The notes under the pieces are model-generated. The model made no database searches. It was given only the letters and a program-made list of their open reading frames with translations, and had not been told where the DNA came from. DNA of 64,000 bases. It comes from an uncultured Acidimicrobiaceae bacterium. GTDB lineage: Bacteria; Actinomycetota; Acidimicrobiia; Spongiisociales; UBA5794. This document shows, piece after piece, positions 1,833-49,206 of the stretch (the stretch's first letter is position 1; each line of letters opens with the position of its first letter). The stretch covers positions 52,549-116,548 of the forward strand of contig CAYLVM010000001.1 in the NCBI GenBank assembly GCA_964387145.1, written 5' to 3'. A program made the translations under genes and the position numbers.

Positions 1833-1990
1833 GGGAGTACCTCCTGATCCGTGGTTTCCCGCCGAGGAAGTCGCCTACAAGAACGAAGGCAGCGCGACGT
1901 ACGCTGCGCGAAGTTCGACCTGACACACCTCGATACGGTGGAAAGGTGGGAAGCAGGCGCCTCCTCTTGCGTCGTTTGTGGCCGTAATAG

Positions 1991-2134
1991 TACCTGGTAT
2001 CTGGTACTTAGTACATGGAGGATCGCCCGATGGGCGGATTCGGTTGCTGGGTTCACAGCTCACAGTTCACAGTCGGAAACCCGGACGATTCCTGGATGAC
2101 CAACTGCTACAGGTAAACGGAGAACGACCGCTCC
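1991..2134. repeat. Structured intergenic element E1 (TGGTAYT heptamers plus a conserved ~120-nt core), between the ribH stop and the infC start
   Basis: Shares its core with E2 at 23940-24070: GATCGCCCGATGGGCGGATTCGG / TTCACAG repeats / CGGAAACCCGG / GGTAAACGGAGAACGACCGCTCC. Compensatory substitutions occur in the stems. A diverged inverted copy lies at 5624-5846. Confidence 0.7.
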
Positions 2135-2149
2135 CCGTGCGCGCATCCT

Positions 2150-2620: not shown

Positions 2621-3827
2621 GTGTCGCCCCTGTCGTGATATGACCCATTCGCTCCGCTTTCGTCGTGAGGTAGTCGTGGTTCTCGGCGGTCTCCCCCACC
2701 CAGATGGATTCACGTTCGACGACATCGACGCCGTAGCGTTGTAGTTGGGCGATCTTGTCCGGGTTGTTCGTGAGGAGCCGGACCGATGCGATACCGAGGT
2801 CGTGAAGGATCTGAGCGTCGACACCGTAGTGGCGTGCATCGTCGGCGTGCCCGATCTGGCGGTTGGCGTCCACGGTATCGAGTCCTTGCTCCTGAAGGTC
2901 GTAGGCTGCGATCTTGTCGAGGATCCCGATCCCTCTGCCTTCATGGGCGGCGTTGTACACGATCACACCCTCACCGGCCTCGGATATGAGTCGCATGGCC
3001 TCGTTGAGCTGGGAACCACAGTCGCAGCGAAGCGAACCGAAAACGTCACCGGTCAAACACACGGAGTGAATCCGGGTGAGAACGTTCTCTCTCCCGTCGA
3101 GAGAACCCATCGTCAACGCAACATGAGGGCTGTCATCGGTCTGGGCCTGATAGCCGATCAAGGTGAACTCACCGTAGCGGGTCGGAAGCGTGGCTTGGGA
3201 CTGGCGCCTCACGAGGTTCTCGGTCCTCCACCGATAGGCGACGAGGTCGTCGATCGAGATCATGACCATGTCATGGTCTCGCGCGAACTCCATCAGCGTC
3301 TCTCCGCGCGCCATCGTCCCGTCGTCGTTGACGATCTCACACAGCACACCAGCAGGAAAGAGGCCACACAGCCTGGCAAGGTCGACTGCTGCCTCCGTAT
3401 GGCCCTGGCGAGAGAGGACACCGCCTTCGAGGCTACGCAGCGGAAAGATGTGCCCTGGTCGACTGAAGTCGGACGGCTTGGCAGAGGGATCGACAACGGC
3501 TCGGATCGTTCGCGCACGGTCGGGGGCGGAGATGCCCGTTGTGGTGCCCTTCAGATAGTCGATCGACACCGTGAACGCCGTGTTGTGAGCTTCGGTGTTG
3601 TCGATCACCATCAGTGGCAACTCGAGCTCGTCGAGTCGCTCCCCGGTGGTGGGAAGACATATCAGGCCCGATGTGTAGCGAACCATGAAGGCGATACGCT
3701 CCGGCGTGACCTTCTCAGCAGCGATGATCAGGTCACCCTCGTTCTCTCGATCCTCGTTGTCGACGACGAGAACGAACTCGCCGCGACGCATAGCGTCGAG
3801 TGCTTCGGGGATCGTCGCGAGCTTCAT
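2607..3827 (-). CDS. ribBA: Bifunctional 3,4-dihydroxy-2-butanone-4-phosphate synthase / GTP cyclohydrolase II
   Basis: The N-terminal DHBP synthase part reads [17 protein letters not shown] and the C-terminal GTP cyclohydrolase II part reads CDCGSQL...[11 protein letters not shown]. Confidence 0.95.
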
Positions 3828-4432
3828 CGTGACGCTCCGATCATGCGTTCGACGTACTTGGCGATGACGTCGACTTCCAGGTTGACGGCGGTACCGGGCT
3901 GTGCTTCACCGAGCACGGTCACGGCAAGCGTGTGCGGGATCAGGACGATCTCGAACCATTGTGTGGGTTCTCCTGGGTCGCTGACCGCCGTGACGGTGAG
4001 GCTCGTACCGTCCACGGTGATCGAGCCCTTCTCGACCACGTAGCGCCCGAGTGCCTGGGGGAACTCGATGTGCATGCGCGATGCGTCTCCTTCCGCTTCG
4101 ATCGAACGGACGTACCCGACGCCATCGACGTGGCCTTGCACGATGTGGCCGTCGAATCGGCCTTCAGCGGGCATCGGTCGCTCGAGGTTCACCGAGTCAC
4201 ATGCCGTGAGCGATCCGATCGTGGTGCGTTCGAGTGTCTCTTGGACGGCGTCGACCGTGAACGATCCTTCTCCGCGTTTCGTCACGGTGAGACAGACCCC
4301 GTTGACCGAGACCGAATCCCCGATACCGAGTCCCGTGAGGCTGGACGATGCGTCGATCGTCACCTTCCGGCCCTTGGGGATGTCCGCGATCAGGGTGACC
4401 GTTCCGAGTTCGGAGACGATTCCGGTGAACAT
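3824..4432 (-). CDS. ribE: Riboflavin synthase alpha subunit
   Basis: [12 protein letters not shown]...VNGVCLTVT / two lumazine-binding repeats. Confidence 0.92.
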
Positions 4433-5478
4433 CAGTTCCTACCTCCTAGATGAGCGATGATCCTGACGTCAGAGCCGATGCTGCGAACGTCGGTGATCTC
4501 GAGTGGTATCGCCTCGGCGATCGTTGCGAACACCCCTCCGACTGCTGGAAGGCCGGTCCCGGCTGCGAGTTTCGCTCCGATGTAGACGACGAGTTCATCG
4601 ACCTCACCCGAGTCGAGAAAGGATCGAGCGATCCTGGCTCCACCTTCGACGAGCACCGAGCGGATCCCTTCATCACCCAGGCGATCGAGTACTCCCTCGA
4701 TAGCAGCTCCCGATGCCTCGGTTCCTTGGATCACGAGCGGGTTCCGTTCCGAGAGACGTGCCATCGCGGGAAGCTCGGAAGATCCCTTGAGTATCACCGG
4801 CCTCGGCTGCGGGCCGTCGTACCCATCGAGGCGAACGGTGAGTTGGGGGTCGTCGTTGCGCAGCGTCCCAGCGCCGACGAGAACCGCGTCGTGGGCCGCA
4901 CGGAGCCGATGGGCATCTCGACGTGCCGGGAGTTGGGTGATCCACTGCGACGTGGTGTCTGCTGCAGCGATCTGGCCGTCGAGGGTCATCGCGAGTTTCA
5001 GTGTCACGAAGGGTGTGCCGGCGCGCCGGTTCGCGAAGTACACGGGGTCGTTCGCCTCGATGACAGGTGACAGGTCGCTCTCGATGACGTCGATACCTGC
5101 ATCTCGGAGGCGTGTGATCCCAGCACCGCGAACCTGTGCGTCGGGATCGCGAGTTCCCACGATGACCCGTGAGATCCCTGCGTCGATGATGGCATCGGTG
5201 CATGGCGGTGTTCGACCGTGGTGGTCGCATGGCTCGAGGGTCACGATCATCGTGTGGCCCGAAACGTCGTCGAGGCCTTCGAGCGCGAGCCGCTCGGCGT
5301 GGGGTGTTCCGGGTCCCTCGTGGGCCGCGACCGAGAGAACCGCACCCTGGGGGTTGACGATGACGGCACCGACCCGTGGATTGGGATGCGGAAGCGTCGT
5401 TGCAGTTGCCTGCAACGCACGACGCATCAACTGATCCACGTCCGTGCCGTCGAGTTGGTTGTCGACAGCGCGACGCAT
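4432..5478 (-). CDS. ribD: Bifunctional diaminohydroxyphosphoribosylaminopyrimidine deaminase / 5-amino-6-(5-phosphoribosylamino)uracil reductase
   Basis: The deaminase part reads HAERLALEG...TLEPCDHHGRTPPC and the reductase domain follows. The true start ATG at 5478 (MRRAVDNQ) sits directly after the FMN riboswitch; the track ORF is extended to 5682. Confidence 0.9.
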   Translation of the reverse strand: MRRAVDNQLDGTDVDQLMRRALQATATTLPHPNPRVGAVIVNPQGAVLSVAAHEGPGTPHAERLALEGLDDVSGHTMIVTLEPCDHHGRTPPCTDAIIDAGISRVIVGTRDPDAQVRGAGITRLRDAGIDVIESDLSPVIEANDPVYFANRRAGTPFVTLKLAMTLDGQIAAADTTSQWITQLPARRDAHRLRAAHDAVLVGAGTLRNDDPQLTVRLDGYDGPQPRPVILKGSSELPAMARLSERNPLVIQGTEASGAAIEGVLDRLGDEGIRSVLVEGGARIARSFLDSGEVDELVVYIGAKLAAGTGLPAVGGVFATIAEAIPLEITDVRSIGSDVRIIAHLGGRN

Positions 5479-5603: not shown

Positions 5604-5623
5604 ATGTGGCACATACGGTAGTG

Positions 5624-5846
5624 CCTGGTACTTGGTATCCGGAACCCGGAAGAGAGCAACCCGACCGAGCGCGGAGTGCCAAGGCGACGGGCGAAGAGGG
5701 AGCAGTTGTCCTCCGTTCACCACTTACCGAGAGAAGCGGAACGTTCAGGAACAGTCAGGTGTCCCGGCTGCGAGCTGTCGACCCGCCGACCGGGTCCCCT
5801 GAGCCTCCAAGTACCAAATACCAAGTACCAAATACCAAGTACCAGG
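5624..5846. mobile_element. MITE-like element E3 with perfect 15-bp terminal inverted repeats (CCTGGTACTTGGTAT) and an internal TGGTAYT/14-nt tandem array
   Basis: The left TIR at 5624-5638 equals the reverse complement of 5832-5846. The internal GGAGCAGTTGTCCTCCGTTCACCACTTACCG block resembles the reverse complement of the 3' ends of E1 and E2. It sits 5 nt after the GGDEF gene stop and immediately upstream of the FMN riboswitch. Confidence 0.6.
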
Positions 5847-5851
5847 TACCT

Positions 5852-22378: not shown

Positions 22379-23279
22379 CTCCCAAGAGTGAAAAGAGCAC
22401 GGCCATGCGGGCCGCCACGCCGTTGGTCACTTGTTGCAGAACGAGGGCACGCTCGTCGTCGGCGACGTCGTGACCGATCTCGACACCTCTGTTCATCGGG
22501 CCGGGATGCAGGACGATGGCGTCGGGTTTCAACCGGGCGAAGCGTTCGCTCGTCATCCCGTACCGCTTCGTGTACTCAGGGAGTGATGGGAATACAGAGC
22601 CTCCTCCACGCTCGGTCTGGACACGAAGGAGGTACACGACGTCCATCGCTTCCATCACCGCGTCGAGGTCCGTAGTGGTCTCTGCGGGCCACCCCGTCGT
22701 GTCCACGGGGAGGAGTGTCGGCGGTGCGACGAGAGTGACATTCGCGCCGAGCGTCGCCATCGCGAACATGTCCGAGCGTGCAACACGTGAGTGTTTGATG
22801 TCCCCCACGATTGCTATGTCGAGCCCATCGAGGGATCCGAAGCGTTGCTTGATCGTCAGACAATCCAGCAGTGCCTGGGTCGGGTGCTGATGAGCGCCAT
22901 CGCCGCCGTTGACGATCGGGATGTCAAGCCACTCGGCCAGGCGCCACGGCGTCCCCGTCGCACCGTGTCGCACGACCATGAGGTCGACACCCATGGCGTG
23001 TACGGTGAGTGCGGTGTCTTTGAGCGACTCGCCCTTCGACAGCGAGGAAGTCCCAGGCGAGAACGACATCGTGTCTGCGGAGAGAGCCTTGGCTGCCTTC
23101 TCGAAAGACATCCTCGTACGCGTCGATGGTTCGAAGAACATCGTTGCCACCGTCTTTCCCCTCAGCGCCGGCACCTTGGGGATGGGTCGGGTGAGGACTT
23201 CGGCGAACTCATCGGCGTCGGAGATCAGATTCTCGAGCGTCTCCCGCTCGAGGCCTTCGGTCGTGAGGAGATGCTTCAC
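22362..23279 (-). CDS. pyrB: Aspartate carbamoyltransferase catalytic subunit
   Basis: FFEPSTRTR...HPTQALLD...HPGP. Confidence 0.95.
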
Positions 23280-23809
23280 GATGTCGCCTCCTTGCCGATC
23301 CAGACCCCGTTGTCACCGTCGATCTCAGAGAAACGGACGGAGACGTGTTCTTCGAGAGATGTCGGGATGTTCTTGCCGACGTAGTCGGCCCGTATGGGGA
23401 GTTCGCGGTGGCCCCGATCGACGATGACCGCCAGTTGGACTGCCGATGGACGGCCGAGGTCGGCGAGCGCGTCGAGCGCGGCGCGAATGGTACGGCCGGT
23501 GAAAAGGACGTCGTCTGCAAGCACGACCGTCTTGCCGTCGAGATCCTCGGGGATGTCTGTCGGACCGATACGGGTTCTGGGTCGTGTGTCGATGTCGTCG
23601 CGGTACATGCCGATGTCGAGGGAACCGGCGATCACTGCCTTGTCTTCGATCTCGCCAAGAGCCGTCGCGAGGCGTTCGGCAAAGGGCCTGCCTCTCGTCG
23701 GGATACCGAGGAGGACCGTTCCTTCGAGACCGTGGTTGCGTTCGACGATCTCGTGTGCGATCCGCCGTGTCACTCGCGTGAGATCATCCCCATCCATCAC
23801 CTGCCGCAT
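23276..23809 (-). CDS. pyrR: Bifunctional pyrimidine operon regulator / uracil phosphoribosyltransferase PyrR
   Basis: [25 protein letters not shown]...[19 protein letters not shown]. The true start ATG at 23809 lies immediately downstream of the attenuator; the track ORF is extended to 23908. Confidence 0.92.
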
Positions 23810-23833
23810 GAAGGGTCCTTTGCTGTCGTTGGT

Positions 23834-23869
23834 ACAGAAACAGAAAAGCCGCACATCGAGATGTGCGGC
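23834..23869 (-). terminator. Attenuator terminator hairpin (GCCGCACAUC-UCG-GAUGUGCGGC) plus U-tract
   Basis: A 10-bp GC-rich stem and a U-rich tail read on the minus strand. Confidence 0.75.
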
Positions 23870-23914
23870 AGCCGGCGTGTGCTCATGTTCGTTCCTTCTC
23901 GGCCTCACGGGACC
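23834..23914 (-). promoter_or_regulatory. PyrR-dependent transcription attenuator in the pyrR leader
   Basis: The minus-strand RNA reads AACCCGGUCCCGUGAGGCCGAGAAGG, which matches the PyrR box UCCNGNGAGGC. It is followed by the intrinsic terminator GCCGCACAUCUCGAUGUGCGGC plus UUUUCUGUUUCUG, 25 nt before the pyrR AUG. Confidence 0.8.
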
Positions 23915-23939
23915 GGGTTAAAGGGTGCTTGTTGGAGCC

Positions 23940-24070
23940 ACTGTAGTACCGGGATCAGCGAATGGGCAGCGGTCGCTGAGTTGACAGTTCACAGTCGGAA
24001 AGCCTGGCCGTTTCTGGGTGCTTGCGCTTCGCCGGCAAACGGTAAACGGAGAACGGAGAACGACTGCTCC
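23940..24070. repeat. Structured intergenic element E2 (paralog of E1), abutting the nusB stop and upstream of the pyrR attenuator
   Basis: GATCAGCGAATGGGCAGCGGTCGC / TTGACAGTTCACAGTCGGAAAGCCTGG / GGTAAACGGAGAACGGAGAACGACTGCTCC align with E1 at 2018-2134. Confidence 0.7.
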
Positions 24071-24472
24071 TTATCCGCTGGTCTTCTCGGTGTCTGATCG
24101 TCCCGGTTCTTCCTTCGCAACGGCGACCGCTGAAAGGATGCCGTTGACGAACGCGCCACTCTTTGCGGTCGAGAACTCTTTGGCGAGTTCCACGCATTCA
24201 TCGATGACGACGCCGAGCGGCACGTCGGTGAAGAGCAGCTCGAAGGTGCCAAGGCGCAAGATGTTCCGATCGACTGCAGGCATGCGCTCGAGGCGCCATC
24301 TCGTGGAGGCGGCGCCTATCGCTGCGTCGATGACCTCTTTGTTCAGCCAGGCACCTTCTGCAAGTGATGCAGCCCTCGCCGAGACCTTCGTGATGTCAAT
24401 GGCATCCATCGATCTGGCGTCGGCGGCGTAGAGCGCCCCAAGCGCGCCAATCCTCGCTGCGTCGGCCGTCAT
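24071..24472 (-). CDS. nusB: Transcription antitermination factor NusB
   Basis: ...WRLERMPAVDRNILRLGTFELLF... Confidence 0.9.
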   Translation of the reverse strand: MTADAARIGALGALYAADARSMDAIDITKVSARAASLAEGAWLNKEVIDAAIGAASTRWRLERMPAVDRNILRLGTFELLFTDVPLGVVIDECVELAKEFSTAKSGAFVNGILSAVAVAKEEPGRSDTEKTSG

Positions 24473-25029
24473 GTCACGCGCGTGATGTAACCGCCGGTGC
24501 GCGTGTCCACCTTCACGACATCACCCTGCTCGACGAAGAGCGGCGCCTGGATCACACGGCCGGTCGAGAGCGTGACAGGTTTCGTCGCACCCGAGACGCG
24601 GTCTCCTTTGACTCCCGGTTCGGCGAAGGTGACCTCGAGCTCCACCGATGCCGGAAGCTCGATGTCGACGGGAGTTCCTTCGAACATGGCGATCTTGACG
24701 GTCATCCCGTCCGAGAGGAAGTCGGCGTTGTCGCCGACGAGGTCCCCCGACACGTTCATCTGCTCGTAGGTCTCGCCGTCCATGAAGTTGAAGCCCATGT
24801 CGTCCTTGTACAGGAACGTGTAGTCCCCGCGATCGATGCGTGCCTTCGGAAGGTTCTCACCGGCCCGAAACGTCTTGTCGAGAACGGCACCGGTGCGCAC
24901 GTTCTTCAACTTCATGCGTACGAACGCCTTCCCTTTCCCCGGTTTCACGTGCTGGTGATCCACGACCGAGAAGAGGCCTTCTGGCAGGTTCAACGCCATG
25001 CCTGGCCGTACGTCGTTGGTAGAGATCAT
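24469..25029 (-). CDS. efp: Elongation factor P
   Basis: MISTNDVRPGMALNL...KPGKGKAFVRMKLKNVRTG. Confidence 0.95.
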   Translation of the reverse strand: MISTNDVRPGMALNLPEGLFSVVDHQHVKPGKGKAFVRMKLKNVRTGAVLDKTFRAGENLPKARIDRGDYTFLYKDDMGFNFMDGETYEQMNVSGDLVGDNADFLSDGMTVKIAMFEGTPVDIELPASVELEVTFAEPGVKGDRVSGATKPVTLSTGRVIQAPLFVEQGDVVKVDTRTGGYITRVT

Positions 25030-25060
25030 GGCGGAGTCCTCCTGGGCGGGTTCGCGGCGT

Positions 25061-26107
25061 CTACACGAGGTCGATACCTGCGAGGGCGGCACGTACGGTA
25101 GCGTCGTTCGGGTGTATGAGCACAGGCGATCCGAACTCTTCGAGGAGCACCATCCGCAGGCCCTGCGAATCTCGTTTCTTGTCGAGCGCCATCATGGCTC
25201 TCACCGCCTCAGCGTCCGCCTCCGGGGCCGTCAGCGGGAGACCGATCCTCACGAGCACCTCCTGCTGACGGGTGACACCAGCGAAGCCGAGATGGTGGGC
25301 GGCGGCGTGACCGGCTGCGACCATCCCGATCGCGACTGCTTCTCCGTGGGGTCGTCCTGTGGTCGACTCGATGGCGTGTCCCACGGTGTGGCCGTAGTTG
25401 AGGACCGCTCGAGAACCCCGTTCGGTGAAGTCTTCGTTCACGACTGCCACCTTGACCGCAACGGAGCGGTTGACGATGTCCTCCAGGTCGGTGTCGATCC
25501 CGTCCGCCTCGAAGGCCGCGATGATCTCGGTGTCCGCGATGAACCCCGTCTTGATCGCTTCTGCTGCACCGACGATCTTGTGCCGGCGTGGAAGGGCATC
25601 GATGGTATCGATGTCGACGATCACGGCTTCAGGATGTGAGAACACGCCGGCAAGGTTCTTCCCATCGACGTTCACAGCAGTCTTCCCACCGATAGCTGCA
25701 TCGACCGCTGCGAGCAAAGTCGTTGCGACGTACATGGCGGACACGCCACGGAGGTAGGTCCCAGCAATGAAGCCGGTCACGTCGGTGAGCGCTCCCCCAC
25801 CCACACCGATCACGATGTCGTCCCTGGTGAATTTGGCTCCGTTGAGGAAGCGGTAGACGTCTTCGACGATACCGAGCTGTTTCGCCTCCTCACCGTCGGG
25901 CAGGGTGTATCCCGACACTTCGAACCCAGACCTGTGAAGGTCGTTCGCGTAGCGTTCGGCGAGGGCCACCGTCGATGGTTGGCAGAGGACGGCTACCCGG
26001 CGACCGGTACGCCGTGCAAGGAGCTCGGGGAGAACACTCGAGACGCCGTGGCCGACCAGGATCGTCGACACCGGCTCGTCACCTCTCCAGATCACGTGGC
26101 GACGCAT
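25061..26107 (-). CDS. aroB: 3-dehydroquinate synthase
   Basis: GGGALTDVTGFIAGTYLRG...GHTVGHAIE. Confidence 0.92.
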   Translation of the reverse strand: MRRHVIWRGDEPVSTILVGHGVSSVLPELLARRTGRRVAVLCQPSTVALAERYANDLHRSGFEVSGYTLPDGEEAKQLGIVEDVYRFLNGAKFTRDDIVIGVGGGALTDVTGFIAGTYLRGVSAMYVATTLLAAVDAAIGGKTAVNVDGKNLAGVFSHPEAVIVDIDTIDALPRRHKIVGAAEAIKTGFIADTEIIAAFEADGIDTDLEDIVNRSVAVKVAVVNEDFTERGSRAVLNYGHTVGHAIESTTGRPHGEAVAIGMVAAGHAAAHHLGFAGVTRQQEVLVRIGLPLTAPEADAEAVRAMMALDKKRDSQGLRMVLLEEFGSPVLIHPNDATVRAALAGIDLV

Positions 26108-49076: not shown

Positions 49077-49136
49077 ATGTTCGGATGATAGGAGCGGGGT
49101 GTGACATTGCAAGTATCGATCCCCGTCCCTTGGCGT

Positions 49137-49178
49137 CTGGCGCCGATACAGCTCGCATCCGAGCTGTATCGGCGCCAG
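49137..49178. repeat. 42-nt perfect palindromic hairpin element, copy B (CTGGCGCCGATACAGCTCG-CATC-CGAGCTGTATCGGCGCCAG), in the yebC-ruvC spacer
   Basis: It has 19-bp perfect arms and is a paralog of copy A at 630-671, with compensatory C/T and G/A changes in the arms. Confidence 0.75.
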
Positions 49179-49206
49179 AGTCCAGATGCGCCGCGGGGAT
49201 GGGAGC

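Follow-up and report, generated by a model that had tools for sequence, protein, structure and literature searches.

The window analysed here is a 64,000-nt stretch of a high-GC actinobacterial contig (~63% GC) whose minus strand carries efp, nusB, pyrR, pyrB and pyrC (Table 1), with 258 nt between nusB and pyrR. An identical NusB protein is encoded on the NCBI metagenome contig VAPL010554763.1 and in three Logan assemblies, and the 90%-identity cluster of PyrR has one member labelled 'hydrothermal vent metagenome'. Ahead of pyrR lies a PyrR-binding leader to which the Rfam model RF00515 aligned over its full length (positions 1–115), with a score below the gathering score of 54 and an E-value that refers to a search of 501 nt. 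Its attenuator terminator hairpin was placed at 23848–23869 by a terminator scan and is followed by a U-tract. The leader is kept in relatives, with pyrR directly downstream in all of them. In E-value mode the PyrR site was the sole Rfam match around the spacer, while at the gathering threshold the FMN riboswitch ahead of ribD was the sole match in the whole window; neither search matched the repeat element described below. This element, E2, occupies the nusB-proximal part of the spacer and reaches into the 3′ end of nusB, and the leader is found in relatives with and without it. The attenuator had been located beyond the far end of the element at 23834–23914 in the preliminary description, close to where the RF00515 model now places it.

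Table 1. Features of the nusB–pyrR region and of the related elements in the window
Feature	Position	Strand	Basis or remark
efp	24469..25092	-	
nusB	24071..24472	-	ORF list, protein match
pyrR CDS	23276..23812	-	ORF list, protein match
PyrR-binding leader/attenuator	23839..23928	-	Rfam RF00515, 36.3 bits, E=0.002
E2, decayed MITE copy, imperfect palindrome, 135 nt	23951..24085	-	TIR consensus match; nhmmer; empty in six relatives
E2 left TIR AAGACCAGCGGATAAGG	24069..24085	-	encodes nusB K-T-S-G and TAA; family consensus
E2 left-arm heptads GTTCTCC GTTCTCC GTTTACC GTTTGCC	24034..24061	-	
E2 right-arm heptads GACTGTG AACTGTC AACTCAG	23976..23996	-	partly complementary to the left-arm heptads
E2 right TIR GCCCATTCGCTGATCCC	23951..23967	-	at the would-be -35 position of the pyrR promoter
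Left target-duplication copy, now CCGAG	24086..24090	-	original presumably CGTAG, with the ancestral nusB stop
Right target-duplication copy GGTAC	23946..23950	-	CGTAC in L036; CGTAG in empty sites
pyrR leader promoter, candidate native -10 box TACAGT	23940..23945	-	kept in six element-free relatives; PyrR model starts at 23928
infC leader, -10 box TACTAT	1992..1987		weak L20-leader match from 1974 (RF00558, 25 bits, E=0.009)
ribD leader, -10 box TACCGT	5620..5615		FMN riboswitch from 5604
E1, 131 nt	2019..2149	-	directly after the ribH stop TAG (2150–2152); empty in L042 and L044
E3, 123 nt	5684..5806	+	perfect CCAAG duplication at 5679–5683 and 5807–5811
Native heptad array (CCAAGTA/CCAAATA) x6, recipient of E3	5807..5850	+	also in the empty site of L043

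E2 belongs to a repeat family with three copies in the window. The 19-nt head motif of the family, GGAGCRGTYGTYCTCCGTT, occurs at 24052–24070(-), 2116–2134(-) and 5699–5717(+) and nowhere else in the 64 kb; the expected number of matches is 0.20, and three were reached in none of 100 shuffles. The same three copies (E1, E2 and E3) were recovered by blastn and by an nhmmer profile, with E-values of 1e-29 to 1e-39, the profile match at E2 extending over 23939–24094 (E=5.7e-39). The repeat copy earlier reported at about 23940–24070 is therefore real, with its limits now corrected to those in Table 1 by matching the ends to the TIR consensus. The abutment of its head on the nusB TAA (24071–24073) likewise stands; the stop codon does not, however, mark the limit of the element, as the left TIR runs on to 24085.

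Beyond the window, the head motif had 31 matches in a genome scan. Of these, 27 were single matches in unrelated phyla, which we discarded as chance hits given that ~35 are expected by our own estimate from database size and pattern degeneracy. The other four come from a single MAG ('Actinomycetes bacterium Dive96_bin3.271') and show clear homology over 130–160 nt, and this related MAG carries five family copies altogether. A metagenome scan added 31 further loci, mostly from the JGI Ga0190293 and VAP* assemblies, and a profile search collected ~35 non-redundant copies in 0.44 Mb of related hydrothermal-vent actinobacterial contigs, ~30 of them from the metagenome loci. Two scans of viral contigs found no match to the element.

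The family consists of imperfect palindromes of 123–188 nt between TIR ends, which leaves no room for a transposase. The 16-nt TIR consensus is AGGATSMGCGGATAGG, and over 24 copies the left consensus AGGATGCGCGGATAGG agrees with the reverse-complemented right consensus AGGATCAGCGGATAGG at 14 of 16 positions; within a single copy the two TIRs typically match at 15–16 of 22 positions, as against 14 of 22 in E2. Read from the left, a copy comprises the left TIR, GAGCRGTCG and a run of heptads (GTTCTCC, GTTTACC, GTTCACC), followed by a centre of ~40 nt, partly complementary heptads (GTGAACT, GTGAACC) and the right TIR. The heptads form internal 7-nt microsatellites whose copy number varies freely between copies. 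A second subfamily of ~180 nt, with the same TIRs and right-arm heptads and another interior (CGCTCTC/CGCCGTC heptads), is represented by L061 2606–2808, L063 10993–11191 and L071 2261–2463 and 9914–10109 (L numbers denote related loci); these copies are 83–94% identical to each other and sometimes stand in tandem with the 152-nt subfamily. Two short variants, L055 137–215 and L063 5689–5763, have a normal left end and left-arm heptads, a short centre and an inverted left arm, and may be deletion derivatives or a third subfamily. The open reading frames across E2 are the tail of nusB and spurious overlapping frames only. Read from the sequence, an AAGGAG-like motif in the element has no start codon at a suitable distance, and a small ORF was rejected.

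The history of the nusB end can be read from orthologous loci. E2 is absent from L037, L039, L040/L041, L076, L077 and L078, all of which align without the element, and the nusB–pyrR spacer measures 120–138 nt in L037, L039, L040/L041, L076 and L077, compared with 263 nt in the filled L036 (Dive96 MAG). In five element-free relatives nusB closes with ...GAC ACG TAG|TACAGTG..., its TAG directly abutting TACAGT (TAGGGT in L040). The empty sites thus have the form GACA-CGTAG-TACAGT, the filled L036 allele reads GACA-CGGAG-[AAGACCAGC...GCTGATCTT]-CGTAC-TACAGT and the filled window allele GACA-CCGAG-[...]-GGTAC-TACAGT. Both target-duplication copies at E2 are degenerate, matching the native CGTAG at 3–4 of 5 positions, and the simplest reading would be a 5-bp duplication of CGTAG at insertion followed by point changes in both copies. 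An insertion without duplication, between the nusB Thr codon and TAG, is also conceivable, as both flanks are degenerate here (CCGAG/GGTAC) and in L036 (CGGAG/CGTAC). If a duplication did occur, a change of TAG to GAG in its left copy would have removed the stop, with nusB then reading E-K-T-S-G to the TAA in the left TIR. The NusB proteins are consistent with this: the sequence common to the relatives ends at ...DT, the tail here is 5 aa longer, and the protein has 133 aa in the window and 130 in L036, compared with 128 in five of the element-free relatives and 124 in the most distant one (L078). Of the last five nusB codons, four lie together with the TAA in the element proper and the first in the mutated left target duplication.

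Elsewhere in the family the marks of transposition are clearer. Perfect 5-bp direct repeats (CTTGG or CCAAG) flank 11 of 24 copies with defined ends, and most of the others match at 3–4 of 5 positions; inside heptad arrays such an apparent duplication is partly confounded with the periodicity of the array, and the near-perfect TATGG/CATGG of L065 stands outside any array. E1 is absent from L042 and L044, and E3 has a counterpart in L042 with matching position and orientation but is missing from L043, whose sequence corresponds to L042 minus the element and one CTTGG. Tandem or nested insertions are seen in L061 and L071. Copies in the Ga0190293 metagenome share 88–94% identity among themselves, suggestive of a recent burst in that organism, whereas the window copies are only 55–77% identical to any other copy, suggesting that they are old. 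The palindromic form, TIRs, 5-bp duplication, dispersed copies, presence/absence polymorphism and lack of coding capacity together identify the family as a MITE, presumably moved by a transposase encoded elsewhere. No inverted pair of TIRs 0.7–3 kb apart, as expected of an autonomous element, was present in the 0.44 Mb of related DNA; partial matches in L056 and L060 were considered as a parent IS and rejected, being truncated copies within an intergenic spacer of 616 nt that contains no transposase ORF. It should also be noted that at the E3 position L044 carries a sulfate-transporter gene between a GGDEF response-regulator gene and ribD (2975–4675, JGI 3300045839), and this intergenic site appears to be a rearrangement hotspot.

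The position of E2 raises the question of what drives transcription of the pyrR leader. In the window allele TACAGT (23945–23940) and the PyrR attenuator are both intact after the insertion. A TANNNT box (TACAGT, TACAAT or TAGGGT) preceded by GTAG is present in all six element-free relatives, 13–15 nt ahead of CCCTTTAACC, a conserved part of the PyrR leader. The nusB gene of L078 stops sooner, at a TGA, and still has CCGTAG-TACAAT downstream of it, which argues that the motif is not conserved merely as a stop codon. Since relatives with empty sites have the same box at the same distance from the leader, we infer that the -10 box is native and lies just outside E2; transcription is predicted to start near 23933. 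This geometry is shared by pyrR, infC and ribD, the box standing 11–13 nt before the start of the Rfam leader model, and orthologs of all three leaders keep GTAC/GTAG followed by TANNNT. At these three leader-regulated operons, over 23940–23950, 1987–1996 and 5615–5625, and in their orthologs the order is GTAC/GTAG, TANNNT, ~7 nt and a leader starting with ACA, with no recognisable -35, and the arrangement may represent a clade-specific extended -10 motif. The infC leader, ~160 nt long, is nearly identical in three species (window 1875–1974(-), L042 8322–8485, L044 8312–8475), its match to RF00558 staying below the gathering score, and infC apparently starts at a non-canonical ATC 7 nt after AGGAGG.

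The preliminary description had placed the pyr promoter inside or at the edge of E2 and had seen in the family a means of supplying or occupying the promoter regions of regulated operons. Position at the edge of 23940–24070 fits the candidate -10 box, while inside E2 no promoter was called; and the family does occupy such regions, all three window copies standing just upstream of operons with leader RNAs (an L20-leader-like RNA, the PyrR box and the FMN riboswitch), although the idea of supply is contradicted by the same -10 boxes in relatives with empty sites. A mobile promoter, in which E2 would provide the pyrR promoter or at least a -35 in its right end pairing with the flanking -10 box, nevertheless has points in its favour. 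The element ends 5 nt from TACAGT, so that the DNA upstream of about -18 is now all element DNA, including the hexamer at the -35 position, TGCCCA (23968–23963); all three copies lie upstream of regulated operons; and Correia elements are documented to make hybrid promoters of this kind (PMC2649163; PMC10969869). Against this, the -10 box, the leader and their spacing are all found in the six element-free relatives, and TGCCCA shares only 3 of 6 positions with TTGACA. A scan of 23750–24150 on both strands with an E. coli-type (sigma-70) model called no promoter. E1 and E3 contribute no promoter element, ending 26 nt and ~60 nt from the -10 boxes of infC and ribD, respectively, and other copies are inverted or sit between convergent genes. 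We consider it unlikely that E2 brought the promoter, but it may contribute a -35 to it.

What we propose instead, and regard as very probable, is that E2 is an old, decayed MITE inserted at the nusB stop beside a pre-existing promoter box of pyrR, and that the promoter was not created by the element. E2 would have inserted into CGTAG, a pentamer that contained the nusB stop and directly adjoined the upstream side of the pyrR leader -10 box. The element-free relatives have no conserved -35, a position that in them falls within the nusB coding sequence, and the pyrR promoter is for this reason probably driven mainly by its -10 box, so that the insertion was probably tolerated. Promoters of this type fit what is generally held for actinobacteria. 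The duplicated pentamer may have helped as well, by restoring 5 bp beside the -10 box.

A copy in this position could also act at the level of RNA. A transcript reading through from efp–nusB would carry the 135-nt imperfect hairpin before the PyrR box, and the element might accordingly serve as a 3′-end stabiliser, processing site or terminator for efp–nusB that insulates the pyr leader. The whole element is indeed an imperfect palindrome with pairing ends, the relatives lack a terminator in the stretch from nusB to the PyrR box, and RNase III/RNase E are known to act on Correia and ERIC elements (PMC10969869). Copies in L033, L036 and L020 fold end to end as long hairpins with z-scores of -2.4 to -3.7. 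The hairpin of E2 itself, however, does not exceed shuffled sequence in stability (z=-0.87), single-sequence folds of the interval 23940–24070 on both strands were no better than shuffles, and the two arms vary independently in heptad number (~3 in the left arm and ~11 in the right arm of L066), unlike a constrained helix. The E2 hairpin is not an intrinsic terminator: it has no U-tract, and within 23750–24150 the terminator scan called only the terminator of the attenuator itself. In a read-through transcript it could, by analogy with Correia elements, be an RNase III site.

Conservation speaks in the same direction. E2 and its L036 ortholog share 77.5% identity, compared with 88% for the leader and 56–68% for the four-fold degenerate sites of nusB, efp and pyrB. 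For E3 and its L042 ortholog the identity is 66%, compared with 68% for the adjacent non-element spacer and ~49% for four-fold sites. The element is thus no better conserved than neighbouring intergenic DNA and gives no sign of element-specific constraint; as E2 and E3 are closer to their orthologs than four-fold sites are, some constraint on intergenic DNA in general is possible. Family copies are found in both orientations; judged by the direction of the genes beside them, E3 points the opposite way to E1 and E2. The copies in L005 and L028 lie between convergent genes by our reading of the ORF lists, a setting that calls for no promoter, and the copy ahead of rpsM in L033 and the one in L020 are inverted with respect to their neighbour genes. 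Inverted copies and copies between convergent genes argue against any orientation-dependent role, be it as promoter or as RNA, and a functional RNA hairpin is in our judgement quite unlikely. No family copy was found inside a called gene, as judged with a crude GC3-based gene caller that mis-called known genes; counts of neighbour-gene arrangements from the same caller were discarded for that fault. The reading best supported is that the effects of the E2 MITE on the locus are incidental.

The association of the family with heptad arrays bears on how E1, E2 and E3 came to cluster at leader-regulated operons. Targets are CNWRG pentamers followed by TA(C), namely CGTAG-TAC, CCAAG-TAC and CTTGG-TAC, the first of these being found at nusB and also at ribH in the empty allele of L042. 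Most copies lie inside GGTACTT/AAGTACC arrays, which are in phase once the element and one copy of the duplication are removed. A survey of 442 kb of related DNA gave 18 arrays, 15 of which touch a family element, and more distant relatives without the MITE are also without arrays. In the window TACCARRTACC has nine matches against 0.66 expected, and arrays stand only beside E1 and E3; besides the array that received E3, related ones lie at 1989–2013 and 5621–5645. The arrays comprise 3–6 units, some as inverted pairs, and occur beside -10 boxes and after stop codons, with further examples at L043 1500–1531 and L071 6682–6706. In L043 the empty site, which directly precedes the ribD -10 box, is flanked by (GGTACTT)5 and, inverted, (AAGTACC)3; since this site carries them without an element, the arrays are native. 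For the same reason we rejected the arrays as part of the element or as an extended TIR; the latter is also contradicted by the flanks in L042, L059, L061, L066 and L072, which are direct and not inverted repeats. Heptads as excision footprints (the 5-bp duplication plus 2 nt) were rejected too, since termini of the type AG...CT do not give the 'TA' of the heptad.

The regularity of the heptads, striking both inside and outside the element, might instead point to a protein-binding module in which the internal heptads (GTTCTCC, GTGAACT) and the flanking GTAC arrays serve as operators for a host regulator or nucleoid protein, and the frequent contact between external arrays and elements would fit such a role. 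Yet sites repeated every 7 bp do not stay on the same side of the DNA helix, the number of heptads is free to differ from copy to copy, and TIRs, duplications and presence/absence polymorphism already explain the spread of the family, all of which makes an operator function very unlikely. Sub-terminal repeats are common at transposon ends, where the transposase binds. The clustering at leader-regulated operons is better explained by a target preference for GTAC-rich pentamers and arrays beside promoters than by promoter delivery. In this clade the GTAC targets border -10 boxes on their upstream side and frequently overlap the stop of the gene before. The heptad microsatellites and the preference for arrays are unusual, and on them rests a possible but doubtful extension, namely that the family is a promoter-homing MITE whose transposase recognises GTAC-flanked pentamers and (GGTACTT)n arrays upstream of -10 boxes, and that arrays and elements may co-evolve.

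In its general features the family resembles the prokaryotic MITEs ERIC/IRU, RUP, Nezha and MITEAba12, with which it shares a size of 120–190 nt, TIRs, a short duplication, the lack of coding capacity, dispersed intergenic copies with presence/absence polymorphism, nested or tandem insertions and a hairpin spanning the whole element. It differs from these named families in the 7-nt microsatellites in both arms, in its strong preference for GTAC-flanked pentamers or arrays and in its host, an uncultured hydrothermal-vent actinobacterium, and to our knowledge it has no sequence similarity to any of them. The closest functional analogue is the Correia element (CREE/NEMIS) of Neisseria, a palindromic MITE of ~100–155 bp that is often found just upstream of genes and duplicates a TA dinucleotide. 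As with E2, the end of a Correia element can abut a native -10 box, making a hybrid promoter possible, and its hairpin can enter a read-through mRNA (PMC2649163). Correia ends combine with native sequence into 'Black' and 'Snyder' promoters, and the hairpin is bound or cleaved by RNase III (PMC2649163; PMC10969869). They have, however, their own 26-bp TIR and are confined to Neisseria (PMC2649163), whereas the family described here has the TIR AGGATSMGCGGATAGG, a 5-bp duplication and no evident IHF site. E2 is not a Correia element: TIR sequence, target duplication and host all differ.

Tn3-derived TIMEs and other IS families that duplicate 5 bp share with this family the length of the duplication and the TIR-bounded, non-autonomous form. 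Inverted repeats of the Tn3 type are ~38 bp long and start with GGGG, while the TIRs here are of ~16 nt and start with AGGAT. REP/BIME sequences, mobilised by RAYTs, are likewise intergenic palindromic repeats, often following stop codons, but REPs measure 20–40 nt and have neither a target duplication nor such TIRs. At 123–188 nt the elements described here are 4–6 times longer and have a 5-bp duplication, and membership in this class was rejected. The window also contains a second, unrelated palindromic repeat of ~55 nt (stem CTGGCGCTGATA...TATCAGCGCCAG) at 623–678 and 49131–49185, with further copies at L042 9630–9671, L056 ~5318, L060 ~6318 and L069 ~6387; in the window and in L042 one copy directly follows rplT, and the repeat may be a terminator or a REP-like family.

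For the pyr operon, these observations reduce what had been described as a composite regulatory region to a transposon insertion scar beside an ordinary, conserved leader promoter and a PyrR attenuator. They also point to a simple promoter geometry in this clade, in which GTAC/GTAG and the TANNNT box precede the leader RNA by a nearly constant distance. In E2 we have a case where a MITE has rewritten the terminal codons and the stop of a conserved gene, nusB. For annotators, the family is an unnamed MITE of uncultured vent actinobacteria, now with a TIR consensus, a target duplication and a target motif. Its only unusual aspect is the tight association of elements with GTAC-heptad arrays. If homing to promoters is true, the elements would systematically replace the upstream promoter half of core operons (pyr, infC-rpmI-rplT, rib, rpsM), with the arrays as possible products of transposition or landing pads for it.
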